Shown: positions 7,502 to 61,972 of the stretch, piece after piece
How positions within the stretch are numbered: position 1 is the stretch's first letter
How the letters are laid out: every line of letters starts with the position of its first letter
Origin: Bacteroidaceae bacterium
GTDB lineage: Bacteria; Bacteroidota; Bacteroidia; Bacteroidales; Bacteroidaceae
NCBI GenBank assembly: GCA_017480685.1
Contig: JAFUSD010000002.1
Location: forward strand, 14,287 to 78,286
Direction of reading: 5' to 3'
Length of the DNA stretch: 64,000 nucleotides
Translations under genes and position numbers: made by a program
Notes under the pieces: generated by a model
Seen by the model: only the letters and a program-made list of their open reading frames with translations
Told to the model about the DNA's origin: nothing
Databases searched by the model: none

Positions 7502-7582
7502 GAGGATATCCTTGCGGGTCGTTGAGGATATCCTCGCGGGCTGTTGAGGATATCCTCACAGGGTGTTGAGGATATCCTCGCC
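7502..7582 (+). repeat. 22-bp tandem array, GAGGATATCCTC-core family, ~3.5 units
   Basis: Units: gaggatatccttgcgggtcgtt / gaggatatcctcgcgggctgtt / gaggatatcctcacagggtgtt / gaggatatcctcgcc. Intergenic between the comM stop and the CE8 start. Confidence 0.95.
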
Positions 7583-14721: not shown

Positions 14722-15057
14722 CCAGCGGAGCTCTGTCGCAACTTGAGGACCGACGAGCTGACGTCTCACATACCAGTGGTAGTCATCACGGCCAAGGCTA
14801 CGGATGCCGACCGCCGTAGTAGGCATCGAGGCAGGAGCAGATGCATATCTCTCCAAGCCATTCAACTCCGACGAACTGTTTGCACGCATCAGTCAGCTGC
14901 TGGAACAACTCGGGCCGCATGAGACGCAAATATGCTCTCCAACCCTATACGCACGGGTGGTGGCAATGCCGTCGGGGGCTGCGGCGTAAGATTAACGCCA
15001 TCACAGGCGTGTCGCCCAAGAAACTCATCATCGACATCCGACAATACTATTACAAAT
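14722..15057 (+). pseudogene. Degenerate remnant of an HTCS C-terminus (receiver domain plus AraC HTH), split over three frames
   Basis: Frame 1 reads LTSHIPVVVITAKATDADR. Frame 2 reads VVGIEAGADAYLSKPFNSDELFARISQLLEQ. Frame 3 reads INAITGVSPKKLIIDIRQYYYK*. These parallel the REC and HTH segments of the intact HTCS at 53647-57582 (KAGADAYLPKPFD..., LKALTGQTPSQFIRSIRL). Confidence 0.55.
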
Positions 15058-15118
15058 AGTAAATAAATAGTAAATCGTCAAATAATTCATAAATAGTAAA
15101 TCTCATAGTTTATACCTG
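15052..15118. repeat. AAAT(A/C)GT heptamer tract (AT-rich family copy)
   Basis: acaaatagtaaataaatagtaaatcgtcaaataattcataaatagtaaatctcatagtttatacc. The end resembles the 34331-34415 tract (gtaaatcccataggttcctatcc). Confidence 0.75.
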
Positions 15119-19517: not shown

Positions 19518-20627
19518 TCATCGTATCTCTAACGTGCAAAAAATGGGATAATGGTCGCTTTCTTGCACGGTTTTGTCTACTTTTGCTCCGTAGGAGGTGA
19601 AACTTTCGCTTGCGAGAATGTGGTCGATTCGGAAGTACATTGCGTTGCGGTTGTACGACCATCCGGGCCCGTTGCCCGACTGTGTGTAGGCGTCGTTGAG
19701 TTGTTGGGTGAGGCGTTGGTGTACGTAGGATACGGGTGAATCGTTGAAGTCGCCACACACGATGATGTGGCGGTGGGTGTTGAGCAGGCTGTCGATTCTT
19801 GTTGCTATGATGTCGGCCTGGCGTGCGCGCAGGCTGTTGGCTTTTGCCAGTTTGCCTTCGAGCCACCAGAAACTTTGCTTCATGTCGATGACGGCTTCAT
19901 CGGTGGCGGCTGAGGTGTTGTCGCCTATCATGGCCGAGTTTTTTATCATTTGCTTGTACATGTGTTTGTCGTCGTCGTCGAGCTGGTAGGATTCGAGGTG
20001 GAGGTTGATGACCACTATCGTGTCGCCGTCAGCATCGATGGTGTATTCGCATCCTGATGCCGACTTGGTGTTGAGTTGTATGGTGTCGGCCGTGAGGATG
20101 GGGTGGCGCGAGAGTATTGCGTTTTTGGTTTCGCTCTCGTTGTCGACCATGATGTAGGGGTATGCCTGGTCGAGGCGTGCGCGTATGGCATCGCGTTTTA
20201 TCTTGTTGACTTCTTGCAGGCATACTATGTCGGCCTCGGCGGCTGTGATGTATTCAATGACTGAGCTGTCGCCTTCGTCGAGTGCTTTGCCTCCGAATGA
20301 GTATACGTTGTATGACAGTATCTTGAGGGTCTTTCCTGTGGGTGTGCCTTGCATGGGGTTGATGGGGCAGTAGTTGCGTATGCTGTTCCAGCACAGGGCT
20401 ATGCCTGCTATGCTTATGAGTGTGTATTTCCACTTCACTATGAGCCATAGTGGAATGAATGCCAGTGTGAGCACTATGCATGCGGGCAGCACCATGCCCA
20501 GGTATGACCAGTTGGGAAATTGTTCGGGGCTGAGGTATATTGAGTATGAGCATACGCCCATTGCTGCCACACAGATGATGTTGATGATGGCGAGGGTGTA
20601 GCGTATGATGTTGCGCAGTATTTTCAT
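19518..20627 (-). CDS. Endonuclease/exonuclease/phosphatase (EEP) family membrane protein
   Basis: 369-aa ORF. Three N-terminal TM segments, then an EEP core (LKILSYNV, CLQEV, GDFND, SDHYP). Confidence 0.8.
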   Translation of the reverse strand: MKILRNIIRYTLAIINIICVAAMGVCSYSIYLSPEQFPNWSYLGMVLPACIVLTLAFIPLWLIVKWKYTLISIAGIALCWNSIRNYCPINPMQGTPTGKTLKILSYNVYSFGGKALDEGDSSVIEYITAAEADIVCLQEVNKIKRDAIRARLDQAYPYIMVDNESETKNAILSRHPILTADTIQLNTKSASGCEYTIDADGDTIVVINLHLESYQLDDDDKHMYKQMIKNSAMIGDNTSAATDEAVIDMKQSFWWLEGKLAKANSLRARQADIIATRIDSLLNTHRHIIVCGDFNDSPVSYVHQRLTQQLNDAYTQSGNGPGWSYNRNAMYFRIDHILASESFTSYGAKVDKTVQESDHYPIFCTLEIR

Positions 20628-21436
20628 TTCTTGCTTGCGTTGAAGAGCTGTTGTTTTTCACTCTCGGTCAGGCTTCCGTAGCCGTCGCGGCGTATTTTGT
20701 CGAGTATTCGGTCTATTTCTTCGCTCTCGGCTTTGCGCTGTGCGTTGTATTCCCAGTCGGTCTGCCGTTCGCTTTTGTTGTAGTGTGCTTCCATGTTGGG
20801 GTGTGTGGCTGTGGTGTGCCATCCGCCGCCGGTTTTGCTGCCGAAGTGTTGTCGTTGCGTCTGTGCCGTCTTTTTCCAGAACATGATCATGATGAATCCG
20901 GCGAGCATGCCTGCCAGGTGTGCTGTGTGGGCTGTGAGGTCGTTGACGAAGAGTGCCGAGCCGAGTTCTATGAATACGTATCCGATGATTAGCCATTTGG
21001 CCTTGATGGGTATGGGTATCGGAATGATGAATATGCGCTCGTTGGGGTATAGCATTCCGAATGCGAGCAGTATGCCGTAGATGGCTCCGCTGGCTCCCAC
21101 GCAGATGCTGTAGGGGTTGATTAGTCCGAACAGCTGGCCGGCCTCCCATGCTATGGCGCCTGCCAGGCCGCACACGAAGTAGTAGATGAGGAACCGCTTG
21201 GTGCCGAGTGTCGGTTCGACGGTGCGGCCGAACATCCACAGGGCGAACATGTTGAGCACTATGTGCCACATGTCGCGATAGCTGTGCACAAACATGTATG
21301 TTATGGGTTGCCATGGCAGGAAGCCTTTGGCAAGTACATAGTGCAGGCCGAAGAGGTCTGACACGTTTATCACGAATCCTATTACGTAGACTGCTACGTT
21401 GGCTATGAGCAGCCATTTCACGGCTTTCGACATCAT
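20624..21436 (-). CDS. Rhomboid-family intramembrane serine protease
   Basis: 270-aa ORF with the catalytic GASGAIYG motif and the downstream HLAG histidine. Its stop overlaps the EEP start (ATGA). Confidence 0.85.
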   Translation of the reverse strand: MMSKAVKWLLIANVAVYVIGFVINVSDLFGLHYVLAKGFLPWQPITYMFVHSYRDMWHIVLNMFALWMFGRTVEPTLGTKRFLIYYFVCGLAGAIAWEAGQLFGLINPYSICVGASGAIYGILLAFGMLYPNERIFIIPIPIPIKAKWLIIGYVFIELGSALFVNDLTAHTAHLAGMLAGFIMIMFWKKTAQTQRQHFGSKTGGGWHTTATHPNMEAHYNKSERQTDWEYNAQRKAESEEIDRILDKIRRDGYGSLTESEKQQLFNASKK

Positions 21437-21663: not shown

Positions 21664-21743
21664 TGAGGATATCCTCACAGGCCCGCAAGGATATCCTCAC
21701 AGGCCTGCAAGGATATCGTCAACGCGTGTCGAGGATATCGTCG
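21664..21743 (-). repeat. 22-bp tandem array, GAGGATATCCTC-core family, ~3.5 units, reverse orientation
   Basis: Reverse complement reads gacgatatcctcgacacgcgtt / gacgatatccttgcaggcctgt / gaggatatccttgcgggcctgt / gaggatatcctca. Lies in the divergent rhomboid / rpsO intergenic region. Confidence 0.9.
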
Positions 21744-21974: not shown

Positions 21975-22244
21975 ATGTACTTAGATTCAGCTAAGAAGCA
22001 AGAAATCTTTGGTAAGTACGGAAAGTCTAACACTGATACCGGTTCATGCGAGAGCCAGATAGCATTGTTTTCCTACCGTATCGACCGTTTGACCGAGCAC
22101 GTAAAGGCCAATCACAAAGATTATAGTACTAACAGAGCACTTGTAAGACTTGTAGGTCAGCGTCGCAGTTTGCTGAGCTATCTTAAGCGCAAGGACATTG
22201 AGCGCTACCGCGCCATTGTTAAGGCTCTGGGTCTGCGTAAGTAA
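21975..22244 (+). CDS. rpsO: 30S ribosomal protein S15
   Basis: 89-aa ORF MYLDSAKKQEIFGKYGKSNTDTGS...HLKANHKDYSTNRALVRLVGQRRSLLSYL, canonical for S15. Confidence 0.97.
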   Translation: MYLDSAKKQEIFGKYGKSNTDTGSCESQIALFSYRIDRLTEHVKANHKDYSTNRALVRLVGQRRSLLSYLKRKDIERYRAIVKALGLRK

Positions 22245-27165: not shown

Positions 27166-27245
27166 CACACTGAAAGCAGTACAATCACACTGAAAGCAAT
27201 ACAATCACACTGAAAGCAGTACAATCACACTGAAAGCAATAAATA
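27166..27245 (+). repeat. 20-bp tandem repeat x4 occupying the predicted 5' UTR of the DUF1599 gene
   Basis: cacactgaaagca(g/a)tacaat x4, with alternating g/a variants (units 1 and 3 are identical; 2 and 4 match until the last unit degenerates). Confidence 0.95.
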
Positions 27246-33026: not shown

Positions 33027-33132
33027 GCCCCTCTTCTCCCGCCCACAGCAATGCTTCGCCTCCTGGCAAAAGCTCTATAACGAATGTCGTTCAGGCGCGG
33101 CATACACCTTCTCTTATTTTTTTCGCGCGTGT

Positions 33133-33233
33133 GAGAATATCCTCGCGGGCTGTTGAGGATATCCTCGCGGGCTGTTGAGGATATCCTTGCGGGCTGTTGA
33201 GGATATCCTCGCAGTGTGCCAGAGGATATCGAT
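33133..33233 (+). repeat. 22-bp tandem array, GAGGATATCCTC-core family, ~4.5 units
   Basis: gagaatatcctcgcgggctgtt / gaggatatcctcgcgggctgtt / gaggatatccttgcgggctgtt / gaggatatcctcgcagtgtgcca / gaggatatcgat. Lies between the dnaG stop and the pyrE promoter. Confidence 0.95.
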
Positions 33234-34057: not shown

Positions 34058-34320
34058 AAGGGGAACCCCTCTCTTATCTCCCCCAAGGGGAGAGGATACC
34101 ATCCGGATGGATAAAGCTCCTCCCCTTCGGGGAGGCGGGGGAGAGGTTAAAGGGAATAGAAGGGGAGTTAAAGGGAAGTTAAAGGGACGAATGTCACCAT
34201 CCGGGGAGAAGACCCCCTCCCCCTGCGAGTACTCCCCCTTTCAGGTGGGAGAGTCCATCCGGATGGAAATAACCTCCCCTAACCCCTCCCAAGGAGGGGA
34301 ATTCCATCCGGATGGTAATA
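34058..34320. repeat. GC-rich mosaic hairpin element, family copy B (largest): three CCATCCGGATGG palindromes plus several G5/C5 stem-loops
   Basis: Contains ctcccc-caa-ggggag, cctcccc-ttcg-ggggagg and cccctcc-caa-ggagggg hairpins. ccatccggatgg appears at ~34094, ~34253 and ~34300. gttaaaggga occurs x3. It starts right at the pyrE stop. Confidence 0.85.
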
Positions 34321-34330
34321 ACCAAATAAT

Positions 34331-34415
34331 TAAATAGTACATAAATCGTAAATAGTAAATCGTCAAATCGTAAATAACAATAAATCGTAAAATCGTAAAT
34401 CCCATAGGTTCCTAT
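34331..34415. repeat. AAAT(C/A)GT heptamer tract (AT-rich family), about 9 units
   Basis: taaatagtacataaatcgtaaatagtaaatcgtcaaatcgtaaataacaataaatcgtaaaatcgtaaatcccatagg. Confidence 0.85.
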
Positions 34416-39812: not shown

Positions 39813-41279
39813 ATGATATATGCTGGATTTTGGGGCATAAAGAACTTAAACAGTAATAATGTGGTGCATCTTTCGATAAATAGAATTTTAAATTCAATAT
39901 ATTTTATTGGCTGGCTGGAGGTTCTGTATGTTATACTACAGATATTTGAAATACTACCTAAACACAGTCATTTCTTTGTATTTACAGGAAACTTCGATAA
40001 TCCCGCTATCGTTGCAATGCTTCTCTCTTTTTGCATACCCATCGGCTTATATCGTATAATGCATGCCAAAAGTACTATGTATAAATCAATATGGATAAAT
40101 ACCACCATCATTATATTTATTGTAATTATAATATCAGGAAGTCGTACTGGTATTATATCATCAATAATATCTACATTATATTTAAAGAAACAAATAAGAC
40201 CAAATAAGTTGTAACGTAGAAGATTTACATTATGGATAATTACTATATTAGCATTTATCATACTCTTAATTCTCTATACAATTAAAAAAGATTCAGCTAT
40301 TGGGAGATTATATATTTGGCGCATATCTTTGCAAATGATTACAGACAAACCATTATTAGGGTTTGGATTAGATGGATTTGCATCTCACTTTATGTGGTAT
40401 CAATCAAAATTCTTATCGGCACATCCGAATTCTCCATTTTTGCTCTTAGCAGATAATATCACTAATCCATTTAATGAATTCCTTTATATTGGTATAAGTT
40501 ATGGAACGATTGGTTTAATATGCACTATCATTTTTTTTACATTAATGTGGCAACAAATATCACTAATTAAATGTAAACAAAAGAAAATCCTATCAGCATT
40601 GTACCTTATTCTCATGTGTTGGTGTATGTTTTCGTATCCCCTGCATGTTCCTTTTGTGTGGATTATTATTTTACTTATTACGATTACAATTTTGAGCCGA
40701 CTTCATCATAAATCATTGATTGTCATTTCACATACAGTTATAATAACAAGTATAATTGTAATACTTTCATCTATATATTCAGTGAGGTTCAGAGCCGAAT
40801 GGGGTGTCGTGCAAGCCCATTCACTTTTTGGACATGAAGATACTGCCATATTAGATTTTAAGCGATTATATAAACATCTTTCGAAAGACGGTAGATTCCT
40901 ATATAATTACGGAGCAGAACTACACATTGCTGAACGTTATGAAGAAAGCAAAAATATACTAAACGAATGTGCTTCATTATTAAATGACTATAATCTTCAT
41001 ATGATAATGGGAGATGATTATATGCAGATTTGTAAGTCTGACTCTGCAATTCTTCATTACAGCATTGCATCAAATATGGTACCAAACAGGTTGCTTCCTC
41101 TGTACCAAATTATGAATATATATTCAAATCAAGGAGACTCTATTAATGCCAAGAAGATTGCATTGATTATCCTAAATAAACGTGTAAAAATCAGATCAAA
41201 TGTAACAGATTTTATAATCAGGAAAGCAATTGAAGTACAATCCGATGATACAACAATAAGAGAAGAACAGTACATTTAA
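39813..41279 (+). pseudogene. O-antigen-ligase/Wzy_C-like membrane protein with a C-terminal TPR-like region, interrupted by a single in-frame TAA (40212-40214)
   Basis: ORFs 39813-40214 and 40329-41279 are in the same frame, and the 114 nt between them contain no further stop (RRRFTLWIITILAFIILLILYTIKKDSAIGRLYIWRISLQ). The downstream part reads DKPLLGFGLDGFASHF...NPFNEFLYIGISYG. A possible additional frameshifted N-terminus begins at the ATG 39763. Confidence 0.65.
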
Positions 41280-41320
41280 TAAATATTACACAATGTGTTT
41301 GTGGTTTTAAAAAAAAAGTG

Positions 41321-41328
41321 TATCTTTG
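41321..41328 (+). promoter_or_regulatory. -7 promoter box TATCTTTG inside the islet, upstream of the 41353 gene
   Basis: aaagtgTATCTTTGcacatc, 25 nt upstream of the ATG. Confidence 0.5.
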
Positions 41329-41352
41329 CACATCAAATAAACAAATTGTCAC

Positions 41353-42006
41353 ATGAACTCTATTAATAAATTAAAATTATTATCATATACCGTATCAATA
41401 ATAACCTCTGTAATTATCACATATTTTGCATGCTCTTCTGATGAAGAAGATGATGATATGTATTATTATAGTCTCAACATTAATGACATTATACCACGTA
41501 CACGCAGTACAGTAGGAGATGCTTTCATATCAAATGATATTCCTACAAGAGACTATTGCGCAATTTGGTGTATTTGGCAACTATGTGGTGGTTCTGACTA
41601 TTATCAAGGTAAGGTTGAAGCAAAAGCTGGTGAACTACTTGGGTGGACAAGAGAAAAACACAGGCCACTTACCCAACCAGAAATATCCATATTAGCAGCT
41701 GCATTTAATAAACCAAGCAACTGGTATCCGAATACAGAGGTAACTAATAATAATGACACAATACCGAATGGAAATGCAATTAAGGCTGTTTATGACTTAA
41801 TAAATAATAATAATATAAAGGCAGATAAAGATAGTACATATGTTTTACCTTACGAGATATTAGTAGTTTCTAATTTTAATCATTGCCAAATAGGGAAAAA
41901 GATAAACTTCTTCACTGGAACGATTTATATATTTTCAAACGAACATAAAAATGGTAAATCAAAGTACGACATACCTCTATCCACAGTTACAGACGTATAT
42001 CTTTAA
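41353..42006 (+). CDS. Hypothetical lipoprotein with a Cys...His arrangement (possible cysteine peptidase/amidase fold)
   Basis: 217-aa ORF. Lipobox ITYFAC followed by acidic SSDEEDDD. Cys cluster RDYCAIWCIWQLCGG (C69/C73/C78) and NFNHCQIG (H177). Confidence 0.6.
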   Translation: MNSINKLKLLSYTVSIITSVIITYFACSSDEEDDDMYYYSLNINDIIPRTRSTVGDAFISNDIPTRDYCAIWCIWQLCGGSDYYQGKVEAKAGELLGWTREKHRPLTQPEISILAAAFNKPSNWYPNTEVTNNNDTIPNGNAIKAVYDLINNNNIKADKDSTYVLPYEILVVSNFNHCQIGKKINFFTGTIYIFSNEHKNGKSKYDIPLSTVTDVYL

Positions 42007-42008
42007 AT

Positions 42009-43073
42009 ATGACATTAACAATGACCGAAATACACATAAGACACAAATTCACCATGATGCTATACCTCGCAATGACATCTATGGGATGGGCACAGAATGT
42101 TGTTCCTACATATCAGCTTGATAGCATTATAAGGAACGATGACCTCAACCTCAAGAAGATTGCATATCGCTACGACAACATCGGAAACGTGACCATGAAG
42201 AAATACTACATTAAAAGGAATAATGTCTGGTTGCTATGCGACAGTACGGTATATACATACATAGGGAATAACAAAACTAGTGCCACACTCTATGGTATTG
42301 AAGAAAATGAGGTTGTACCATTTAGTCTGACAGAATACTATTATAATAATGGTGTGCTATATAAAGAAACCAAATATAGTTTTGCAGCATCTACATGGCT
42401 TCCTATACAAGAAAAAGACTATGAATACACCGATGATATGATAAGCATAGAAAGGACCTACTCATTGGAGAAAGGACGCAAATCATTAGTCACTACAACC
42501 CAGTATTCATACAACGACGGATTGCTAAGAAGCAAACAAACCGACCATCATTTAGGTGATGGAACCACAAACCCATGCATGCGATGGATCTATACATGGA
42601 GTGATGGAACCACTCCTAAATGTACACAAATAAAGATATGTGAATACAACCTGCATCAATGGCAAATATCAGAGCAAGACACATTTATATACGATGAAGC
42701 AGGTGTACTAATCGGGAAGTATGACGAAGTTGGATGGGGAAATGGTGTAATCGATTTCATACAGAAAACAGAATTCTGCTATGACATATCAGGCAATATC
42801 ATAAGTATACGATATTATAATAAGACGGGCGAAAATGCATGGCAGCCAGTGTACGACACACATTTTATGTATAATAGCAACATTCCACTTGACAATATTG
42901 TAAACACCACACTTGTGCGGGAACTATGGGGAATAGATATCGGTATACCAACGCATTCCTTTGCGATACAACACTGCAACAACATGCCGACAGCTATAGT
43001 GACTCTTGATGCTCCTCATCCCGACAACATAGATGAATACACACAATATTATTACTCGATATTAGAAGAGTAA
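42009..43073 (+). CDS. Small YD/RHS-repeat-like secreted protein
   Basis: 354-aa ORF. The signal peptide probably starts at MMLYLAMTSMGWAQ (ATG ~42054). Recurring YD-type repeats: IAYRYDNIGNV, EYYYNNGVLYKE, YSYNDGLLRS, FIYDEAGVLIGKY, FCYDISGNIISIRYY. Confidence 0.6.
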   Translation: MTLTMTEIHIRHKFTMMLYLAMTSMGWAQNVVPTYQLDSIIRNDDLNLKKIAYRYDNIGNVTMKKYYIKRNNVWLLCDSTVYTYIGNNKTSATLYGIEENEVVPFSLTEYYYNNGVLYKETKYSFAASTWLPIQEKDYEYTDDMISIERTYSLEKGRKSLVTTTQYSYNDGLLRSKQTDHHLGDGTTNPCMRWIYTWSDGTTPKCTQIKICEYNLHQWQISEQDTFIYDEAGVLIGKYDEVGWGNGVIDFIQKTEFCYDISGNIISIRYYNKTGENAWQPVYDTHFMYNSNIPLDNIVNTTLVRELWGIDIGIPTHSFAIQHCNNMPTAIVTLDAPHPDNIDEYTQYYYSILEE

Positions 43074-43101
43074 CATTAGATTAATACTATATATTCATCT
43101 T

Positions 43102-43143
43102 AGTCGCAGTATTGCACCAACTGGATTACATTCTACGAATAAA
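43102..43143 (+). repeat. Right copy of the perfect 42-bp direct repeat
   Basis: Identical to 39618-39659. Non-coding here. Confidence 0.95.
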
Positions 43144-43169
43144 CAAAAGACAAGATAAGACGATAAACA

Positions 43170-43640
43170 ATGAAGACTGAAAGCAACGTAAAGACAGTGA
43201 TGGCACCGCAAGATGTGGTGTACGCACGGCTGTCGGACCTCACGAACGTGAGCAAAGTGCGCGAACGACTCGACGACCCTGACTTCCAGCAGCAGTTGAG
43301 CCAGCAGATGCCCGACGGACACAAGATCGACGAGATACGCGAGCGGCTCGACTCTATGCAGTTTGATGCCGACTCGGTGAGCATGGATGTGCCGCCAATT
43401 GGCAACATAGCAATACGCATCATAGAGCGCGAACCCGAGAAGTGCATCAAGTTCGAATCGGTCAACTCGCCAATACACTTCTACCTGTGGATTCAACTGC
43501 TGCCGCTGACCGACACATCGAGCAAGATGCGCCTCACGGTAGATGCCGACGTGAACCCATTCATGCGTATGATGGTAGAGAAACCGCTGAAGGAAGGAGT
43601 GGAGAAGCTGGCCGACATGCTGGCAAGCCTGCCGTATTAA
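43170..43640 (+). CDS. SRPBCC-like (START/polyketide-cyclase fold) small protein, tentative
   Basis: 156-aa ORF. Its length and the N-terminal pattern (VKTVMAPQDVVYARLSDLTN) resemble SRPBCC ligand-binding proteins. The assignment is weak. Confidence 0.5.
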   Translation: MKTESNVKTVMAPQDVVYARLSDLTNVSKVRERLDDPDFQQQLSQQMPDGHKIDEIRERLDSMQFDADSVSMDVPPIGNIAIRIIEREPEKCIKFESVNSPIHFYLWIQLLPLTDTSSKMRLTVDADVNPFMRMMVEKPLKEGVEKLADMLASLPY

Positions 43641-43657
43641 AGAAAAGAGGAAAAAAG

Positions 43658-43800
43658 ACCCTCTCCCCAACCCTCCCCCGTCATCCCCCTGCGGGGGATT
43701 GAGGGGGGACAAATCGGTTCTTCTCCCCCTCGCACTCCCCCAGGGGAGAGGGGGAGGGAGGCCATCCAAATGAATCTCCTCATAAAATGGGGGAGAGATG
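43658..43800. repeat. GC-rich mosaic hairpin element, family copy C
   Basis: Contains atccccc-tgc-gggggat and ctcccc-cag-gggag hairpins, a degenerate ccatccaaatga half-palindrome, and aaatgggggag shared with copy A. It lies right after the SRPBCC stop. Confidence 0.75.
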
Positions 43801-43847
43801 TATGAAAGAGAGAGAGGGTGCGTAATTAATTATTCATTATATTAGGA

Positions 43848-45182
43848 ATGAACAAACTTTGGACAAAAAACGTTGAAATGACCGATGAAATCGAGCGTTT
43901 CACCGTAGGTCGCGACCGCGAGATGGACCTCTATCTCGCACCTTACGACGTGCTTGGCTCGATGGCTCACATCACGATGCTCGAGTCGATAGGGCTGCTG
44001 AGCAAATCGGAACTCGACCAACTGCTCGTGGAACTGAAAACAATCTACGACACCTGCGTGCGCGGGGAGTTCAAGATAGAGGACGGAGTGGAGGATGTGC
44101 ACTCGCAAGTGGAGCTGATGCTCACACGCCGGCTGGGCGATGTGGGAAAAAAGATCCACTCGGGACGCTCAAGGAACGACCAGGTGCTCGTCGACCTCAA
44201 ACTCTTCATCCGCCAACAACTGCGTGAAATTGTGGAACTGACCGACACGCTGTTCCGCCACCTCATCAAGCGGAGCGAAGAATGTAAAGACATACTCATG
44301 CCAGGATATACCCACCTGCAGGTTGCCATGCCCTCATCGTTTGGATTGTGGTTTGGAGCGTATGCTGAAAGCCTTGTCGACGATATGCAATACCTGCTGG
44401 CTGCATGGCGCATCACCAACCGCAACCCGCTGGGCTCGGCTGCAGGATATGGCAGCTCGTTCCCGCTCAACCGACAGATGACCACCGACCTGCTGGGGTT
44501 CGACTCGATGGACTACAATGTGGTGTATGCACAGATGGGTCGTGGCAAGACTGAGCGCAACGTGGCCTTCTCGCTCGCAAGCGTGGCAGGCACACTGGCC
44601 AAGTTGGCGTTCGATGCATGTATGTTCAGCAGTCAGAACTTCGCATTCGTACACCTGCCCGACAACTGCACCACCGGGTCGAGCATCATGCCCCACAAGA
44701 AAAACCCCGACGTCTTTGAGCTCACACGTGCCAAATGCAACAAACTGCAGGCACTGCCACAGACCGTCATGATGATAATGAACAACCTGCCGTCGGGCTA
44801 CTTCCGCGACCTGCAAATCATAAAGGAGACATTCCTCCCTGCATTCGACGAACTGAAGGACTGCCTGCGCATGGCTTCCTACATCATCGAGCGTATGGAC
44901 GTGAACCCCGACATACTGTCCAACCCGATATACGACAACATGTTCTCCGTGGAGGAGGTGAACCGCCTGGCAGCAGCCGGAATGCCCTTCCGCGATGCAT
45001 ACCGCAAGGTGGGGCTCGACATCGAGGCTCATCAGTTCACGCCCGACAAGAACATACACCATACCCACGAGGGTAGCATAGGCAACCTGTGCAACGACCG
45101 CATAGCGCTACTTATGGACAATATCCTCGGCCAGTTCAACTTCAGTAAAGTAGACAATGCAATACAGACGCTCAGGAAATAG
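43848..45182 (+). CDS. argH: Argininosuccinate lyase
   Basis: 444-aa ORF. Fumarate-lyase signature GSSIMPHKKNPD, plus SGRSRNDQV and YTHLQVAMP. Confidence 0.95.
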   Translation: MNKLWTKNVEMTDEIERFTVGRDREMDLYLAPYDVLGSMAHITMLESIGLLSKSELDQLLVELKTIYDTCVRGEFKIEDGVEDVHSQVELMLTRRLGDVGKKIHSGRSRNDQVLVDLKLFIRQQLREIVELTDTLFRHLIKRSEECKDILMPGYTHLQVAMPSSFGLWFGAYAESLVDDMQYLLAAWRITNRNPLGSAAGYGSSFPLNRQMTTDLLGFDSMDYNVVYAQMGRGKTERNVAFSLASVAGTLAKLAFDACMFSSQNFAFVHLPDNCTTGSSIMPHKKNPDVFELTRAKCNKLQALPQTVMMIMNNLPSGYFRDLQIIKETFLPAFDELKDCLRMASYIIERMDVNPDILSNPIYDNMFSVEEVNRLAAAGMPFRDAYRKVGLDIEAHQFTPDKNIHHTHEGSIGNLCNDRIALLMDNILGQFNFSKVDNAIQTLRK

Positions 45183-46702: not shown

Positions 46703-48175
46703 ATGACACACACAGGCCATACATTGAAAGACAAAACGGCACGCGGGTTGCTGTGGGGCTTCATCAGTAGCAGCTCCATGCAGGTGTTGAACGTCGTGTT
46801 CGGCATCGTGCTCACATTCTGTCTGTCCAGCGAGGATTATGGCATGATGGCAGTGCTCAGCATCTACTCGGCCATAGCGGCATCGCTGCAAGACAGCGGG
46901 TTCGTGGCTGCACTTACCAACAAGCCCAGACCCACACACCGCGACTACAACTCGGTCTTCTGGTTCAACATTTCGTGTAGCGCCTTTATATACATTGTCT
47001 TGTGGTTCTGTGCTCCACTCATTGCCGACTACAACCACGATCCACGGCTCATACCACTCTCGCGATACACGTTCATCGGTTTCTTTGTGGCAAGCTTCTC
47101 AATCACTCCGAGGGCCATTCTTTTCAAGCAGATGCGGGTGAAAGAACAGACCATCATCAACCTCGTGGCACTCATCGTCTCTGGCATCGTGGGCATAAGC
47201 ATGGCATTGTGCAAGATGGCATTCTGGAGCATTGCCACCCAAAGCATTGTGTTTGTAGGAATAACGGCACTGCTCAGTTGGCATCTCTCGGGTTGGCGCC
47301 CTTCGTTTTCCATCAGTCTCCGACCCATAAGCCAGATGCTGCCTTTCAGCTTCAAACTGCTCATCACCAACATTTTTTTCAACATCAACAAGTTTGCATT
47401 CGAGAGCGTGCTCGGCAATTTCTATCCTAAGACCGACATCGGATTCTACTCGCAAGCCAACAAATGGAATCAGATGGGCAGCCAGACCATAAGCGGCATG
47501 GTGCAAAGTGTGGCACAACCCATGTTTGTGGAAGTAGGAAACGACACTGAACGTCAACGCCGTGTGTTTATCAAGATGCTGCAGTTCACCGCCTTCGTGG
47601 CGTTTCCTGCACTGTTCGGACTCTCGCTCATTGCCCACCAGCTCATAAGCCTGCTGCCACAGCGATGGATGCCTGCAGCCGACTACCTGCAGCTGCTCGC
47701 TATAGCCGGAGCATTCATGCCACTGGCTACTCTCTACTCCAACTTCATCATTGCACAGGGAAAGTCTAACATCTACATGTGGAACATGATAGCACAAAGC
47801 ATCGTAATACTGCTCAACATCTTTGCCGTGCAATACTTCCACATCCACATCCTGAACCTGTCGGGCATTTGGCTCATGATAGCAGTCTACATAACGGCCA
47901 ACATCGTGTGGATACCCATCTGGCACATATTTGTATACCGCCAGATACAGTTGCAACCATGGGGAGCTCTGCGTGCAATACTGCCGTCGATGGCCGCTGC
48001 AGCCATTGCAATGATTGCCACACACTACGCCACAGCGGCCATCACATCAAGCCACCTGCTGCTACTCATCATGCGCATACCTATGGCTGCAGCAATATAT
48101 ATATGCACCATGCGCATCACTCGCTCCGACATTCTCGACGAATGCATCAACTACATACGGCACCGCAATCACTGA
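46703..48175 (+). CDS. Polysaccharide/oligosaccharide flippase (Wzx-like, MOP superfamily)
   Basis: 490-aa ORF with ~12-14 TM helices and the N-terminal pattern KTARGLLWGFISSSSMQVLNVVFGIVL, typical of Wzx/RfbX-like proteins. Confidence 0.8.
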   Translation: MTHTGHTLKDKTARGLLWGFISSSSMQVLNVVFGIVLTFCLSSEDYGMMAVLSIYSAIAASLQDSGFVAALTNKPRPTHRDYNSVFWFNISCSAFIYIVLWFCAPLIADYNHDPRLIPLSRYTFIGFFVASFSITPRAILFKQMRVKEQTIINLVALIVSGIVGISMALCKMAFWSIATQSIVFVGITALLSWHLSGWRPSFSISLRPISQMLPFSFKLLITNIFFNINKFAFESVLGNFYPKTDIGFYSQANKWNQMGSQTISGMVQSVAQPMFVEVGNDTERQRRVFIKMLQFTAFVAFPALFGLSLIAHQLISLLPQRWMPAADYLQLLAIAGAFMPLATLYSNFIIAQGKSNIYMWNMIAQSIVILLNIFAVQYFHIHILNLSGIWLMIAVYITANIVWIPIWHIFVYRQIQLQPWGALRAILPSMAAAAIAMIATHYATAAITSSHLLLLIMRIPMAAAIYICTMRITRSDILDECINYIRHRNH

Positions 48176-48176
48176 T

Positions 48177-48298
48177 AAGGATATCCTCAACGCACCGCAA
48201 GGATATCCTCAACACACCGCAAGGATATCCTCAACGCACCGCAAGGATATCCTCAATGCATTGCAAGGATATCCTCAACGCACCGCAAGGATATCCTC
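48177..48298 (-). repeat. 22-bp tandem array, GAGGATATCCTC-core family, 5.5 units (largest), reverse orientation
   Basis: The forward strand reads aaggatatcctcaacgcaccgc x5.5, with cores at 48177, 48199, 48221, 48243, 48265 and 48287. The reverse complement is gaggatatccttgcggtgcgtt. It starts 1 nt after the flippase stop codon. Confidence 0.95.
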
Positions 48299-48348
48299 AC
48301 GTTTACTCATACCACCTTACAGCCGGTGTCGTTTCATAAGAATCGTGT

Positions 48349-48398
48349 AAAAAAAACAGCAGAAAACCCCGATGAAACCGAGATTTTCTGCTGTTTTT
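48349..48398. terminator. Bidirectional intrinsic terminator between the flippase and argF'
   Basis: aacagcagaaaa-(17 nt)-ttttctgctgtt, flanked by an A8 run upstream and a T run downstream. Confidence 0.8.
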
Positions 48399-49447: not shown

Positions 49448-49511
49448 GTTATGATTCAGTCGAAATATATGTTATGATTCAGACGAAATATGTTATGATT
49501 CAGTCGAACAG
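49448..49511. repeat. ~22-bp tandem triplication that includes the stop codon and last codons of the PfkB kinase gene
   Basis: gttatgattcagtcgaaatatat / gttatgattcagacgaaatat / gttatgattcagtcgaacag. The third copy supplies ...LFD-TGA of the 49500-50450 gene. Confidence 0.9.
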
Positions 49512-51105: not shown

Positions 51106-51864
51106 TTATGCTTGTAGTGTGAGTTCCACAGGGCAGTGGTCGGAGCCCATCACCTCTGTGTGTATTTTTGCACCGTCGAGTTGTGGTGCCATGCGCTGGG
51201 AACATACGAAGTAGTCGATGCGCCACCCTGCGTTGTTCTCGCGTGCATGGAATCGGTACGACCACCATGAATAGATGTCGGTTTCATCGGGGTGGAAGTG
51301 TCGGAATGTGTCGATGAAACCACTGTCGAGCAGTTGGGTGAACTGCTGGCGTTCTTCGTCGGTGAAACCGGCATTGCGGCGGTTGGATTGCGGGTTCTTC
51401 AAGTCGATTTCCTTGTGGGCTACGTTCATGTCGCCACAGATGACTACGGGTTTCTGTTGGTCGAGGCGTTGTACGTAAGCACGGAAGTCGTCATCCCACT
51501 GCATGCGGTAGTCGAGCCGGCGCAGGCCGTCTTGCGAGTTTGGGGTGTAGACGGTGACAAGGTAGAAGGTGTCGAACTCGAGTGTGATGACACGTCCTTC
51601 GTGGTCGTGAAGGTCGATACCGAGGCCATAGCTGACGCTCAACGGGTTGAGGCGTGTGTAGATGGCAGTGCCCGAGTATCCTTTCTTGTCGGCATAGTTC
51701 CAGAATGACTGGTAGCCAGGGAAGGCCAGGTCCAACTGCCCTGCCTGCATTTTGGTTTCTTGCAGGCAGAAGCAGTCGGCGTCGAGTGTGTTGAATGTAT
51801 CGGCAAACCCTTTGCCGGCACAGGCTCGAAGGCCGTTAACATTCCATGAGATAAGCCTTATCAT
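51106..51864 (-). CDS. xth: Exodeoxyribonuclease III
   Basis: 252-aa ORF with [26 protein letters not shown] and SDHCPV. Confidence 0.93.
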
Positions 51865-51927
51865 TTACGATTTGACTATTTACTATTTACGATTCAGTTG
51901 TCGCAGCGTATATGGATTTACGATTAG
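51863..51927. repeat. AAAT(C/A)GT heptamer tract running directly into the xth start codon
   Basis: The minus strand reads ...aatcgtaaatcc...gaatcgtaaatagtaaatagtcaaatcgtaaATG. Confidence 0.8.
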
Positions 51928-53646: not shown

Positions 53647-56600
53647 TCAGTGTACGGCTCCTGGGGTAATTCCGAACATATCCTTGAATGCAAGGGTGAA
53701 CGATCGTTGGTCGTTGTAGCCCACCCTGTACATTGCTTCTGCCACTCCTATGGTTTGGTTTTGTAGCAACTGGTATGCATATCTCAGCCTTATGCTTCTT
53801 ATGAATTGTGATGGTGTCTGCCCTGTCAGTGCTTTCAGTTTGCGGGTGAGGGTTGATCGGCTCATCATCATGTCTGAGCACAATGCTTCAACGTCGTATT
53901 CTGACTCGGATATGTGTTGTTCTACTATGTTGATGGCGTGTTGCACAAACTGGCGGTCTATGTCGCCCACTTCCATCTCGTCGGCCGATGTCTGTGCAGC
54001 TGTATGCTGGAAGTGTTGCTGCATCTTTGCCCGTCCTGCCATGAGACTTTCGAGCAGTGAGAGCAGCACTGGTGTGTCGAATGGTTTGGGCAGGTAGGCA
54101 TCGGCTCCGGCTTTATATGATTCCACTTGGGTCTGCACCCCGGTCATGGCAGTGAGCAGTACGATGATGGTGTGGCTGAAGCGTATGTCGTTTTTTATTG
54201 TGTTGCATAGTTGTATTCCGTCCATGCGTGGCATGCTTATGTCGCTCACCACTATGCTGATGTCTTCGTTTTCTATTATGTCGAGTGCTTCTATGCCGTC
54301 GTGTGCACAGAAGACGGTGTAGTGTGTTGACAGCATGTCTTGCATTGCAGCCAGCAGTTCCAGGTTGTCTTCCACCATGAGCAGCGATGTGGTGTGTGAT
54401 GGTATGTTGGGTGTATCTGTGTGTTGTGCTGTCTTTGAGGTGGCTATGTTGGTTGTGTCGATTTGTGGTTCTCCCAGTTCGGTCTCGTCATAGCTTTGTG
54501 CGTCTATCGGCAGTTCCACCTTGAACGTGGAACCTTTGCGTGGCTGGCTTTCGAGGCTGATGGTTCCGTGGTGCAGTGTCACGAGTTCTTTGGTCAGCGA
54601 GAGTCCTATGCCGTTGCTTATGGTGCCGGCGTTTTTGCGTGATGAGTAGAAGCGGTTGAAGATGTATTTCTGTTCTTTCGGTTCTATGCCTATGCCTTCA
54701 TCGCTCACGCTCAGTGTCAGTATGTTTGCCTGCTCGGTGGCGCTGAGTGTCACCTTGCGCCCTGTGGGTGTGTATTTCATGGCGTTCGACACGAGGTTGA
54801 ACATTATCTTTTCTATCTTGTCGCGGTCTACGTATCCTTCTATGTCGTGTACAGGCAGGAGTGTCATGAACTGTATGTTGCTGTCGACCGCGAGTGGTTC
54901 GAAGCTCTCGCGGCATATTGTGCGCAGCATTTCGGTTATGTTGGTATGTTCCACATATAGTTTCATGTTGTTGCTCTCCACCTTTCTGAAGTCGAGCACC
55001 TGTTGCAGCAGTCGTTTCAGTCGCATGACGTTGGCTTGTATCAGTCGTGGTTCGTCGCTGTCTTGCTGTGGTTTCAGGCGTCCGGCCAGCAGGTTGATTA
55101 TGGTGAGTGGGGTGAGCAGTTCGTGGCTTATGCTGGTGAAGTATGTCATCTTGGCCTGCGTTATGTTGTCGGCCAGTTTCTTCTGGTTTTGCTTTTCCAG
55201 ATGGCGTTTGTAGAGCATGATGACCGTAGTTGCTGCCGCGATTGCTATCAGTGTGTAGATGATGTATGCCAGTATGGTTTCATACCATGCCGGCTGGCGA
55301 TATACGTAGAGTCGTGTTTCGGCATCGCTCCATAGTCCGTTGGTGTCGGTAGACTTTATGTGTAGTGTGTGTCGGCCTCGTGGCAGGCGGTTGTATATGG
55401 CTGTGTTGTGTCCGGCGTCCAGTTCTGTCCAGTCGTCGTCCACTCCGTCCATCTTGTATGCGTAGCGTATGTTTTGCAGGTTGGCAAAATCGAGCGACGA
55501 GAAGCTGATGGTGATGTTGTGTGCGTTGTGGCCGAGGGTTATCTCGCCGGGGCGTGCATGGTTCTTAGGGTCGAACCACACGGAGGCACCTGCCACTGAT
55601 ACATCGGTTATGTGTGGTATGACCCGTGTGGGTTTGCTTTCCAGTTTTTTCGATGGGCTCAGGGTCATGAATCCCGGAATACCTCCTATGTATATGAGGC
55701 TGTCGGTGGGGTCTATGAATACTGACGATGGCAGCAGTCTCAGCAGTGGGCACGAGGGGGTTGCGGTGGTTGTGGTGCGGAATGCTCCGTTGGCGGGGTT
55801 GTATTCTTTCACTCCCTGACTGGTCATTATCCACAGGTGGTTGAAGCAGTCGGTGTCGAGGTGTTCTATGCTTTCGCCGTTCATGCCGCAGTCTTCGGTG
55901 AAGTCGCTGTATCGTTTGCCCTCGTCTTGCGATTCGTCGAACCGGTATACGCGTCCTTCGCGTGTACCTATCCAGATGTAGGGTGCGGCGGTGGTCACGG
56001 TTATTATGTCGATTCCTAACGGGTATAGGTGTGACTCGCCGCCTGGGGTCACCTTCAGCAGTCCTTGTCCGCGCACAGCACACCAGATGTTGTGTTGTCT
56101 GTCTTCTGCCATGTCGGCTATCTCGCCGTCGGTGGTGCCTATGTGTCGTGGCAGGCTGCTGTCGTGGGGCATCATGTATAGTCCGTGTCGGGTACCCATC
56201 CACAGGTTGCAGCCTGTGTCTTCGTATGCAGTGGTGATTCCGGCTCTCTCGTCTTGCTCCACACCGGTGCTCACCCGCTTTATCATTGTCAGGTTCATGC
56301 CTTGGCGCTCCAGCAGTATGGCTTCGTAGCTATAGACAGCCCATACGCGCTGTGTGTGCGTGTGTGATGGTATGAGGTGTTGTGTGAGGTATAGCGGCAG
56401 CTTGTTCACCTGTGGCAGTTTCATGTAGTCGGTCCATGAGTCGGTGGCGGCATCATACAGCCACAGGTTGTTGCGTTTCTGCATCACCCAGTACACACCG
56501 CCGCCGTCTCTGCATAGTGCCATCACCGATGGTGCGAAGTGTGTGAGGTGTGCCAGTGTGGGCAGGGTGTCGTATTTTATGCGGTTGCCGTCAAGGTCTA

Positions 56601-57582
56601 TGACGAAGCTCTGCGAGTCGAAGCCGGTGACCCACAGGCGCCCGTCGCCGCGTTTGTCTATGCTGTTGTATATGTAGTTGTTCTGCGGCAGCATTCCGGC
56701 GGTGGAGAGCCGTTGCAGATGGCCCTCGGCAGAGGGTCGGAACACGTACAGGCCGCGGTAGTATGCAATTGCCCAGATGTATCCGTAGCGGTCGTCCTGC
56801 ACCAGGTGGGTGTAGAGCGTGATGCGGTGTCCGTAGTCGTCCATCACGTCGGGTTGCCGTTCTACCACGGGTGGTGTGCCGTCGTGTCCTTCCACGTATT
56901 TCATGAAACCATCGTTGCGGTCGCAGAGCCAGTAGCAGCCGTTGGCACGATCGTGAATCATGGCCGACACCTCAATGCCTTCCACCTTGGTGTCAAACCG
57001 CCCGGTGGCCACATCCAGCACCTGAAGCCCCATTCCGTAGCGCGATACCCAGAGGCGTCCGTAGCCATCTTCATAGAGGCAGAAGATGGGCCCCGTGTCG
57101 TACATCCTCAGTATCCGGCCCTCGGCACTTATGTGATACAGGTGGCGGGTGCCCATGGCCCATATCGAGCCGTCGGCCGATGCCAGCATAAACTCCACAC
57201 GTGTGTTCATCAGCTCATCGTCGCCCACGCGCTCCATCTCAAACGTGCCGGGGTTCATGCGTATGAGCCCTGCCGAGGTGGCTACCCACAAGTGGTCCGA
57301 CCCGTCTTCGGCTATGACCGTCACCTCGTTCACATCGAGAGCATCGGGGCGGAACACATTCTTGCGAAACACGTGTATTGCATAGCCGTCGTCGCGGCAC
57401 AGGCCGTTCGTGGTGCCATACCACACATAGCCATGCGAGTCTTGAAACACCTGGGTCACCTCGTTCAGAGGCTGGCTGCCGCTATGGCTGAGGGGCGATA
57501 TGCTCACATCCTCGAGCTGGGCATGCACACAGCAGGTTTCCCACAGCATGGCTGCAAACAGCACAATCAGACGTATGTTCAT
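53647..57582 (-). CDS. Hybrid two-component system sensor/regulator (HTCS): periplasmic beta-propeller/Y_Y_Y, HisKA-HATPase, receiver, AraC HTH
   Basis: 1311-aa ORF with a signal peptide. Reg_prop-type repeats (GYVWYGTTNGL, LWVATSAGL). One TM helix. H-box SISHELLTPL. The ATPase has an N box (LVSNAMKY) and GIGLSL. Receiver DISMPRMDG...KPFD. The C-terminal AraC HTH ends MFGITPGAVH. Confidence 0.92.
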   Translation of the reverse strand: MNIRLIVLFAAMLWETCCVHAQLEDVSISPLSHSGSQPLNEVTQVFQDSHGYVWYGTTNGLCRDDGYAIHVFRKNVFRPDALDVNEVTVIAEDGSDHLWVATSAGLIRMNPGTFEMERVGDDELMNTRVEFMLASADGSIWAMGTRHLYHISAEGRILRMYDTGPIFCLYEDGYGRLWVSRYGMGLQVLDVATGRFDTKVEGIEVSAMIHDRANGCYWLCDRNDGFMKYVEGHDGTPPVVERQPDVMDDYGHRITLYTHLVQDDRYGYIWAIAYYRGLYVFRPSAEGHLQRLSTAGMLPQNNYIYNSIDKRGDGRLWVTGFDSQSFVIDLDGNRIKYDTLPTLAHLTHFAPSVMALCRDGGGVYWVMQKRNNLWLYDAATDSWTDYMKLPQVNKLPLYLTQHLIPSHTHTQRVWAVYSYEAILLERQGMNLTMIKRVSTGVEQDERAGITTAYEDTGCNLWMGTRHGLYMMPHDSSLPRHIGTTDGEIADMAEDRQHNIWCAVRGQGLLKVTPGGESHLYPLGIDIITVTTAAPYIWIGTREGRVYRFDESQDEGKRYSDFTEDCGMNGESIEHLDTDCFNHLWIMTSQGVKEYNPANGAFRTTTTATPSCPLLRLLPSSVFIDPTDSLIYIGGIPGFMTLSPSKKLESKPTRVIPHITDVSVAGASVWFDPKNHARPGEITLGHNAHNITISFSSLDFANLQNIRYAYKMDGVDDDWTELDAGHNTAIYNRLPRGRHTLHIKSTDTNGLWSDAETRLYVYRQPAWYETILAYIIYTLIAIAAATTVIMLYKRHLEKQNQKKLADNITQAKMTYFTSISHELLTPLTIINLLAGRLKPQQDSDEPRLIQANVMRLKRLLQQVLDFRKVESNNMKLYVEHTNITEMLRTICRESFEPLAVDSNIQFMTLLPVHDIEGYVDRDKIEKIMFNLVSNAMKYTPTGRKVTLSATEQANILTLSVSDEGIGIEPKEQKYIFNRFYSSRKNAGTISNGIGLSLTKELVTLHHGTISLESQPRKGSTFKVELPIDAQSYDETELGEPQIDTTNIATSKTAQHTDTPNIPSHTTSLLMVEDNLELLAAMQDMLSTHYTVFCAHDGIEALDIIENEDISIVVSDISMPRMDGIQLCNTIKNDIRFSHTIIVLLTAMTGVQTQVESYKAGADAYLPKPFDTPVLLSLLESLMAGRAKMQQHFQHTAAQTSADEMEVGDIDRQFVQHAINIVEQHISESEYDVEALCSDMMMSRSTLTRKLKALTGQTPSQFIRSIRLRYAYQLLQNQTIGVAEAMYRVGYNDQRSFTLAFKDMFGITPGAVH

Positions 57583-57818: not shown

Positions 57819-57919
57819 AACGATATCCTCGCGGGCCGTTGACGATATCCTCGCAGGGCGTTGACGATATCCTCGCGGGCCGTTGACGATATCCTCGCAG
57901 GGCGTTGACGATATCCTCA
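57819..57919 (+). repeat. 22-bp tandem array, variant GACGATATCCTC core, 4.5 units with a 44-bp higher-order alternation
   Basis: aacgatatcctcgcgggccgtt / gacgatatcctcgcagggcgtt / gacgatatcctcgcgggccgtt / gacgatatcctcgcagggcgtt / gacgatatcctca. Lies in the divergent HTCS / thioesterase intergenic region. Confidence 0.95.
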
Positions 57920-61826: not shown

Positions 61827-61936
61827 TGGTAGATTTACCAATAACAAACTGTAGATGTACTAATATAAAACCGTGGATGTACTAATATAAAACCGTGGAT
61901 GTACTAATATAAAACCGTGGATGTACAAATAATAAA
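61827..61936. repeat. 22-bp tandem repeat, 2 perfect plus 3 degenerate units, upstream of tdk; followed by an AAATAGT heptamer tract (61937-61968)
   Basis: ccgtggatgtactaatataaaa at 61871 and 61893. Variants at 61849 (ctgtagatg...) and 61915 (...gtacaaataataaa), plus a degenerate copy at 61827. Then tggtaaatagtaaattagtaaatagtaaataag. Confidence 0.9.
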
Positions 61937-61972
61937 TGGTAAATAGTAAATTAGTAAATAGTAAATAAGACC

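Follow-up and report, generated by a model that had tools for sequence, protein, structure and literature searches.

A dispersed family of four-palindrome, 22-bp-period intergenic arrays in uncultured Bacteroidales

The 64-kb stretch of a Bacteroidaceae chromosome analyzed here (contig JAFUSD010000002.1, positions 14,287 to 78,286; the whole stretch is referred to below as the window) carries five copies of a dispersed non-coding repeat. The element is a module of about 78 bp composed of four 12-bp palindromes, GAGGATATCCTC, and three 10-bp G+C-rich spacers. Copying into intergenic DNA involves the module as a whole, regardless of the neighboring genes or their direction. It is long-lived at a site, where it occasionally gains units to reach five or six palindromes, and its arrays are kept homogeneous both internally and genome-wide, a related lineage carrying another core at the same kind of site. 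The family has not been described previously; although new as a family, it belongs to a general type of bacterial repeat that is already known rather than to a novel type of system. On balance we favor, by a modest degree of confidence, the view that the arrays are a fold-back minisatellite similar to REP/BIME (repetitive extragenic palindromes) or to BrickBuilt, spread and homogenized by a factor that would act in trans.

Tandem Repeats Finder detected five intergenic arrays with a period of 22 in the window, at 7502-7581 (3.7 copies), 21666-21742 (3.5 copies), 33132-33212 (3.7 copies), 48177-48299 (5.6 copies) and 57820-57918 (4.5 copies). Allowing at most one mismatch, GAGGATATCCTC had 21 matches in the window, all within these arrays, as opposed to 0.13 expected from shuffles; none of 100 shuffles of the window reached 21. 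The 22-bp unit consists of the palindrome and a spacer of consensus RCRGGSYGTT, which defines the polarity of each array. An earlier note on this DNA had proposed the same five intergenic arrays with alternating orientations, and both proposals were correct; its view of them as non-coding was also right. The arrays and their surroundings are as follows.

Array 1, 7502..7579, polarity +: four palindromes (GAGGATATCCTT/C) with three intervening 10-bp spacers; bounded on one side by the stop of a YifB/ComM-like ATPase gene (7657-9204, minus strand) and on the other by the start of a pectinesterase gene (5936-7390, minus strand).
Array 2, 21665..21742, polarity -: four palindromes, two of them GAGGATATCGTC; divergent region between a rhomboid gene (20624-21436, minus strand) and rpsO (21975-22244, plus strand).
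Array 3, 33133..33233, polarity +: four palindromes and a degenerate fifth, GAGGATATCGAT; starts 107 bp past the dnaG stop, upstream of pyrE.
Array 4, 48177..48298, polarity -: six palindromes, AAGGATATCCTC on the plus strand; convergent region, 1 nt past the stop of a Polysacc_synt_3 flippase gene (46703-48175).
Hairpin, 48354-48396: strong, terminator-like and separate from array 4, 55 nt downstream of it.
Array 5, 57819..57918, polarity +: five palindromes of the homogenized variant GACGATATCCTC; divergent region, upstream of both a gene for a hybrid two-component system (HTCS; 53647-57582, minus strand), at a distance of about 237 bp, and a thioesterase gene (58154, plus strand), at 235 bp.

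The unit had been described as a perfect or near-perfect palindrome. This needs correction: the palindrome is imperfect throughout array 4 (AAGGATATCCTC) and array 5 (GACGATATCCTC), which carry homogenized variants, and GAGGATATCGTC occupies half of array 2.

The anatomy of the module was derived from 27 complete arrays, which provided 99 palindromes and 76 spacers for a logo. The palindrome reads G A G/c G A T A T C C T C/t and is followed by the spacer R C R G G S Y G T T. Palindrome positions 2, 5 to 9 and 11 were invariant, positions 4 and 10 were nearly so, and positions 1, 3 and 12 varied. Twenty-one arrays contained four palindromes (78 bp), four contained five, two contained six, and none contained fewer. 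No solo or paired palindromes were found in the 110 kb made up of the window and two related loci, L036 and L064. Spacer polarity was uniform in most arrays, being mixed only in L045, L048 and L057.

No conserved leader or tail was found among the 27 arrays, and pairwise alignments of the flanks gave at most 10 to 20 nt of weak similarity. In the flanks of 26 arrays, Y occupied position -1 and R position +1 without exception; the left side was A-rich, some copies ended in a T-run on both strands, and a subset had short inverted ends, (G)AAAAT ... ATTTT(C). The dyad symmetry reached into the flanks, where on average 4.3 of the first ten positions were complementary as opposed to 2.5 expected (p ~1e-4). 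The earlier statement that the arrays lack terminal inverted repeats is therefore approximately true at most, although its other half stood: the arrays are not inside an obvious insertion sequence (IS) or MITE (a miniature transposable element with inverted repeats). No direct repeats were seen flanking the arrays, and no IS5-type terminal inverted repeat was found on them. As single strands, both RNA and DNA are predicted to fold strongly (z from -3.6 to -9.7), with strong RNA folds in arrays 1 and 4 and in L041 (z from -6.7 to -9.7). Two alternative folds are available, P1:P2 with P3:P4, or a nested P1:P4 with P2:P3.

The family is not confined to the window. It was present in related contigs of uncultured Bacteroidaceae and Prevotellaceae and in a metagenome, and thus the earlier claim of a dispersed family stands; the named DnaG homologues belong to metagenome-assembled genomes (MAGs) labeled "Bacteroidaceae bacterium" and "Prevotellaceae bacterium." Among the matches listed for the genome scan, which used the pattern GATATCCTC-N13-GATATCCTC, one GTDB Bacteroidales MAG (RGIG3770; L007) contained an array of six family units and a Prevotellaceae MAG (L001) contained a related 22-bp unit. 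A metagenome scan for two palindromes 8 to 12 bp apart returned 23 contigs, about 18 of them of this family; 15 of these came from one metagenome and all had different flanks. No family matches were found in viral contigs, INPHARED phages or PLSDB plasmids, and we rejected a phage, plasmid or viral origin. An Rfam scan, which the earlier note had suggested, gave no gathering-level match in the window, and when array 4 was scanned at permissive settings, nothing beyond miRNA-like hairpin noise below the threshold appeared.

Several other contigs were recovered by these patterns. The matches listed included 22-bp arrays of GTGATATCCTCGCTATGCTCGG, with up to 13 copies, in Firmicutes/Phascolarctobacterium bins (L002, L012, L013, L022 and L028) and in a Dehalococcoidia MAG (L021). 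The terminal units of these arrays form perfect hairpins. They share only one or two further bases with the present family and have no 12-bp palindrome, and they were recovered because the search pattern imposed the 9-mer GATATCCTC and the period. We therefore rejected a cross-phylum family; these arrays are probably an unrelated one. L058 contained many copies of TGAGGATATCCTCA but had eukaryote-like, low-complexity open reading frames (ORFs) and was likewise regarded as unrelated.

Within its hosts, the repeat is abundant. Eleven arrays were found in 110 kb of three related genomes: five in the 64-kb window, three in 22 kb of L036 (DnaG 83% identical to that of the window) and three in 24 kb of L064 (HTCS protein 61% identical). 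This density, which the earlier note had anticipated, amounts to a copy in roughly every 10 kb of chromosome within a clade of uncultured Bacteroidales and, by extrapolation from array-containing regions, to about 300 arrays per 3 Mb. One more array was located right after dnaG in L067 (DnaG 80% identical). No arrays were found in 40 kb of L040 and L065, whose DnaG proteins are 68% identical to that of the window.

Arrays are gained and lost between close species. The site of array 2 was empty in L036, and an array downstream of rpsO in L036 had no counterpart in the window. Two arrays were common to both genomes, after dnaG (array 3) and directly after the flippase stop (array 4). At these shared sites the sequences were homogenized in a species-specific manner, GAG with GCGGGCTGTT versus GAC with GCGGGGYGTT. 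Copying of whole modules was apparent from L045 and L047. These arrays have different neighboring genes but have common spacers s1 and s2, including the unusual GCAATACG, as well as a common left end, AATGAAAT, and a common right end, ATTTC. Since spacers and short ends are shared at different loci, whole modules must have been copied. The s3 spacers of the two arrays, GCGACCCCGC and GCGGGGTCGC, are exact reverse complements, which shows that a spacer can flip between two palindromes.

A sister family had the same GAG...CTC arms, the same type of spacer, the same 22-bp period and about four palindromes, but a TGCGCA core (GAGTGCGCACTC). It was absent from the window and was found in relatives with 62 to 73% identical marker proteins, at the following sites.

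L038, 4268-4351: sister-family array.
L066, 618-693: sister-family array.
L068, 9733-9815: sister-family array of GACTGCGCACTC.

The two cores meet at one conserved site. An array was located about 190 to 270 bp upstream of the start codons of orthologous HTCS genes in three species (the window, L064 and L068), whose products are 61 to 64% identical in pairwise comparisons. The upstream arrays have the same polarity and align in register, and their orthology is based on position, polarity and register, as the flanks are not alignable. The palindromes are GAGGATATCGTC (five copies) in the window, GAGGATATC(C/G)TC (four copies) in L064 and GACTGCGCACTC (four copies) in L068, so that the core is GATATC in the first two species and TGCGCA in the third. 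Given that about 12% of intergenic regions carry an array, three independent insertions in the same orientation upstream of the HTCS gene appear unlikely (estimated below 0.01). The simpler reading is that this is an old array with its core replaced in one lineage. Replacement of the core at this site would imply homogenization across dispersed copies, that is, genome-wide concerted turnover.

These data bear on another explanation, that the arrays are ordinary minisatellites, each of which arose by independent slippage at its site, with no dispersal mechanism. Units are indeed homogenized within arrays, and the window contains other, unrelated intergenic minisatellites of 20 to 25 bp, as if the lineage were prone to such repeats:

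10775-10905: 25 bp x 5.3, between trkH and trkA.
27166-27238: 20 bp x 3.7.
49448-49508: 21 bp x 2.8.
61832-61936: 22 bp x 4.7 (GATGTACTAATATAAAACCGTG).

Independent slippage, however, does not account for the recurrence of one 22-bp unit, with its asymmetric spacer, at more than 25 unrelated loci. The shared spacer combination of L045 and L047 and the sharp peak of copy number at four effectively refute slippage alone, and we consider it hardly credible.

Arrays appeared to be indifferent to their surroundings. The window is ordinary chromosome with about 52% G+C, and Pfam scans found only housekeeping functions (among its genes are dnaG, rpsO, secDF, dxs, tpiA, ndk, pyrE, a polysaccharide locus, glycoside hydrolases and HTCS), with no transposase, rep, par or cas gene. 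In all 11 arrays of the three genomes, the module was intergenic or overlapped just the last codons of a gene, and its neighbors were ordinary housekeeping genes. Tandem, convergent and divergent intergenic regions were all occupied, in either orientation relative to transcription; with respect to the transcript of the upstream gene, array 3 lies in the sense and arrays 1 and 4 lie in the antisense orientation. Thus, neither a particular transcriptional context nor one polarity is preferred. A number of arrays lie close against stop codons, being 1 nt past the flippase stop in two species and 27 nt past a peptidase gene, and one array in L064 overlaps the last codons of a called rnpA gene. Directly adjoining this last GAGGATATCCTC array is a 27-bp tandem repeat with the palindrome GAGTACTC (L064 17234-17306).

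Proximity to stop codons, the T-run ends and the strong predicted RNA folds of arrays 1, 4 and L041 would all be consistent with a role at the RNA level, whereby transcribed arrays fold as tandem hairpins and act in termination, in 3'-end protection or as targets of an RNA-binding protein. The earlier note had placed array 4 in a 3' untranslated region. This reading does not extend to the family as a whole, since divergent promoter regions hold two of the five arrays. At these two, and at the array at 4535 in L064, which also lies in such a region, one would not expect a 3' end. In addition, array 4 has a canonical terminator of its own downstream, arrays 2 and 5 have T-runs that are directed into the starts of genes, orientation to transcription is mixed, array 5 folds no better than shuffles, and there is no Rfam match. 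We regard an RNA-level role as very improbable.

REP/BIME/REPIN elements are repetitive extragenic palindromes of Proteobacteria and other phyla that are mobilized by RAYT/TnpA-REP Y1 transposases. The present family resembles them in many respects: both are short, palindromic, non-coding and strictly intergenic, lie beside unrelated housekeeping genes and often abut stops, reach hundreds of copies per genome (by extrapolation in our case), and form regular composite fold-back structures of about 80 to 100 bp. Both also have a species-specific consensus, turnover of repeat classes between relatives, and several families per genome. An "orthoswitch" of the REP class between related strains is known from REP/RAYT systems (PMC3686654), and genomes rich in REPs typically contain several coexisting palindromic families (PMC3733652); the genome described here likewise has other families of small palindromic repeats besides the arrays. 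Where the driver gene of REP-like elements is known, it is single-copy and located elsewhere in the genome. It is the many intergenic copies, the indifference to neighbors and orientation, the copying of modules, the fold-back structure, the gain and loss of sites, the species-specific consensus and the coexisting palindromic repeats that lead us to a REP/BIME-like reading.

Under this reading, spread and homogenization would be effected by a sequence-specific, trans-acting protein encoded elsewhere in the genome, most likely a transposase-like enzyme similar to the drivers of REP/REPIN elements. Such an enzyme could recognize the palindromes either as duplex sites for a dimer or as hairpins in single-stranded DNA, after which slippage and palindrome-templated repair would maintain the array; any effects on neighboring genes would be by-products and not the reason for the arrays. 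Speculatively, four palindromes make exactly two 12-bp hairpins or one nested fold-back, which would suit an element with two structured ends. Bacteroidetes carry atypical subclasses of Y1 transposases flanked by atypical secondary structures (PMC6006769), which makes the trans-acting enzyme a testable lead.

Several observations weigh against the REP-like reading. No transposase or other candidate driver was found in about 300 kb of the window and related loci; the Y1_Tnp domain was in no gene of the related loci analyzed, and no RAYT gene was linked to the arrays. Unlike REPs, which are imperfect hairpins mostly in inverted pairs and rarely in head-to-tail dimers (PMC3733652), the family consists of perfect, loop-less 12-bp palindromes that follow one another strictly head to tail at a constant 22-bp period, and its size is quantized at four. 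There is no invariant GTAG/CGTC tag, the spacer ending in YGTT before the palindrome and just a few copies reading CGTC. Stable single-strand folding is not kept everywhere, as array 5 (the GAC variant GACGATATCCTC) folds no better than shuffles (z of 0.03 and -1.7). Contigs with exactly the same DnaG as the window and 99.8 to 99.9% identical DNA had arrays 2 and 3 at unchanged copy number, apart from a few single-nucleotide differences in array 3 (first unit); such stability between strains gives no sign of current mobility. At the sites that differ between the window and L036, the flanks of filled and empty sites are too diverged for an exact junction or target-site duplication to be defined. 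Finally, the near-invariant center of the palindrome, the varying spacers and the symmetric AT-to-CG changes of the center are explained equally well by binding of a host protein.

In that alternative, the arrays are phased duplex docking platforms for a dimeric host protein (nucleoid-associated, partition-like or a global regulator), which are kept by selection, bind four dimers 22 bp or about two helical turns apart, and do not spread selfishly. Positions 2 and 11 are invariant along with the center, and the two palindromes of L064 that read GAGGACGTCCTC carry a symmetric central AT-to-CG change, with no one-sided center mutants seen. The TGCGCA core is itself palindromic, the period of 22 bp and the site number of four are the same in both core families, and arrays are retained upstream of the HTCS orthologues and also behind dnaG and the flippase gene. 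Either orientation is acceptable, which is what a duplex site would predict. On the other hand, we know of no candidate binding protein, and the arrays show no preference for promoters, gene ends or a class of gene. Sites come and go between close species. Variation at positions 1, 3 and 12 is one-sided and uncompensated, position 3 varying while its partner, position 10, does not, and an asymmetric variant runs throughout arrays 4 and 5. The relatives with 68% identical DnaG have no arrays in 40 kb, and an essential chromosomal role is therefore unlikely. We consider this explanation unlikely, though worth keeping in view. More doubtful still is a specific version of it, in which the modules would be docking sites for a dimeric Bacteroidales DNA-binding protein, such as a chromosome-organizing factor or a domesticated transposase, whose specificity co-evolves with the core (GATATC or TGCGCA at the same loci). 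If true, it would provide a natural system of protein-DNA co-evolution across hundreds of chromosomal sites.

The earlier note could match the arrays to no repeat class known to it from Bacteroidota, which was too strong: the population behavior is that of REP/BIME, and a 23-nt Bacteroidales minisatellite with a 12-bp palindrome has been described. This repeat, BrickBuilt of Porphyromonas gingivalis, is a tandem 23-nt unit at 19 dispersed intergenic loci (Klein et al. 2015, PMC4596501). Like the present family, it belongs to the order Bacteroidales, has no unique spacers and no Rfam match, and its consensus, AGAYCATARTATCCTCTCRTRTG, includes a 12-bp palindrome centered on ATAT, TCTCRTRTGAGA, together with the octamer RTATCCTC that occurs in our unit. 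It differs in its period of 23 rather than 22, in having 1 to 23 repeats with no preferred number, in the leader (up to 285 nt), tail (up to 318 nt) and IS5-type terminal inverted repeats of most copies, and in its confinement to P. gingivalis and P. gulae. The arrays could in principle be remnants or internal minisatellites of an IS-derived, BrickBuilt-type MITE whose leader, tail and terminal inverted repeats were lost or are very short, as 3 of the 19 BrickBuilt copies lack both leader and tail (PMC4596501) and a subset of our arrays has the short inverted ends. However, a conserved leader or tail was present in none of the 27 arrays, there was no IS5-type terminal inverted repeat, no direct repeats were seen beside the arrays, and beyond the 8 nt, which occupy a different part of the architecture and have a chance of about 0.03 of matching (our estimate), the units are unrelated. 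Descent from a BrickBuilt-type MITE is improbable in our view.

Two further systems share parts of this architecture. BOX of Streptococcus pneumoniae is a dispersed, intergenic, modular repeat with a tandem middle module and a stable secondary structure, for which we know of no transposase; unlike the present family, it has boxA and boxC end modules, a 45-bp boxB, no perfect palindrome and no fixed copy number. Iterons and type II plasmid centromeres, to which the earlier note had compared the arrays, consist of three to seven head-to-tail repeats of about 20 to 22 bp with two-turn phasing and are bound by protein as arrays, examples being the four 22-bp iterons of pPS10 and the four 20-bp repeats of pSK41 parC. 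They occur once per replicon, with rep or par genes alongside, and are built of units that fall short of perfect palindromes. The comparison did not hold: the five arrays of the 64-kb chromosomal window lie among dnaG, rpsO, secDF, dxs and tpiA with no rep or par genes, have no PLSDB matches, occupy all transcriptional contexts in both orientations, number many per chromosome, and are gained and lost between related species.

Other candidates were considered and rejected. The arrays are not CRISPRs, as the earlier note had correctly stated; their 10-bp spacers are variants of one consensus rather than unique sequences, the period is 22 bp, whereas CRISPR repeats measure 23 to 50 bp and alternate with unique spacers about as long, and there are no cas genes in the window. 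GATATC and TGCGCA are the sites of EcoRV and FspI, but a restriction-modification decoy was rejected, since the rest of the window shows no avoidance of GATATC (16 observed versus 19 expected). The alternating + - + - + orientations do not mark paired transposon ends, as the intervening DNA consists of housekeeping genes and the alternation has a chance of 1/16. DnaA-box clusters were dismissed: ATATCCTCA agrees with TTATCCACA in 7 of its 9 positions, a resemblance that is missing from the TGCGCA family. A XerD-like recombinase encoded beside array 2 found no support as a driver; it is of the housekeeping type and syntenic in relatives, and its score of 312 bits falls just short of the equivalog cut-off but exceeds that of the tyrosine-recombinase subfamily model.

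Dispersed palindromic repeats have been studied well in Proteobacteria but are almost undescribed in Bacteroidales, a dominant group of the gut and rumen, in which BrickBuilt is the only characterized case. The hosts of the present family are uncultured gut or bioreactor Bacteroidales. Because its palindromes are perfect, its 22-bp period and its number of four are fixed, and its core is swapped at orthologous sites, the family offers a clean system for studying how repeats spread, what keeps them homogeneous and by which protein they are read. The features worth following are above all its regular module of four palindromes and the switch of core at conserved sites. In practical terms, the arrays break metagenome assemblies, with many copies found at contig ends, and cause spurious ORF calls, and they may serve as lineage markers.

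A second dispersed repeat, CCCCCTCGCRCTCCCCMAGGGGAGAG, forms a CTCCCC..GGGGAG hairpin and was found at 43725-43750 in the window, at about 545-575 in L047 and at about 9785-9815 in L064. In the latter two it lies just past the last palindrome of an array and is flanked by a direct duplication of 25 to 28 bp that comprises a spacer, a palindrome and 3 to 6 nt of flank. L045, the paralogue of L047, lacks the insertion. By a remote analogy with CRISPR adaptation, the duplication could reflect an integrase that makes staggered cuts across the whole repeat.

A low-G+C stretch (40001-44000; 0.37 as opposed to about 0.52) lies inside the polysaccharide-biosynthesis cluster bracketed by arrays 3 and 4, and the matching interval of L036 is about 5 kb shorter. 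Its composition and the shorter L036 interval suggest a horizontally exchanged cassette. In the whole window, GATATC and TGCGCA occurred at the expected frequency, and CCTAGG, GCTAGC, TCTAGA (that is, CTAG-containing hexamer palindromes) and AGATCT had no occurrences.

Two 22-bp arrays, at 3-118 in L067 and at 1082-1145 in L065, contain a 10-mer (ATGGCCCTGC and ACGGCCTGTT, respectively) that resembles the G+C-rich spacer of the family, and their other 12 bases (GTTCCGCTGAGA and GCTATGAGCGAA) are not palindromic. A third repeat, the perfect 12-bp palindrome CCATCCGGATGG, occurs at 34099, 34255 and 34304 within an intergenic region of the window (34060-34330) rich in CCCC/GGGG hairpins, and near-copies at 5847 and 5888 lie inside a 41-bp tandem repeat (5825-5907). 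With up to two mismatches, it had 8 matches versus 2.9 expected. The window also contains four heptamer arrays, (TAAATCG/TAAATAG)n:

34342-34401: directly upstream of the start codon at 34438.
61927-61967: directly upstream of the start codon at 61973.
51863-51894, minus strand: directly upstream of the start codon at 51864.
15053-15102: the fourth array.

The three arrays that precede start codons have the same orientation as the gene, and these arrays may be 5'-leader elements.

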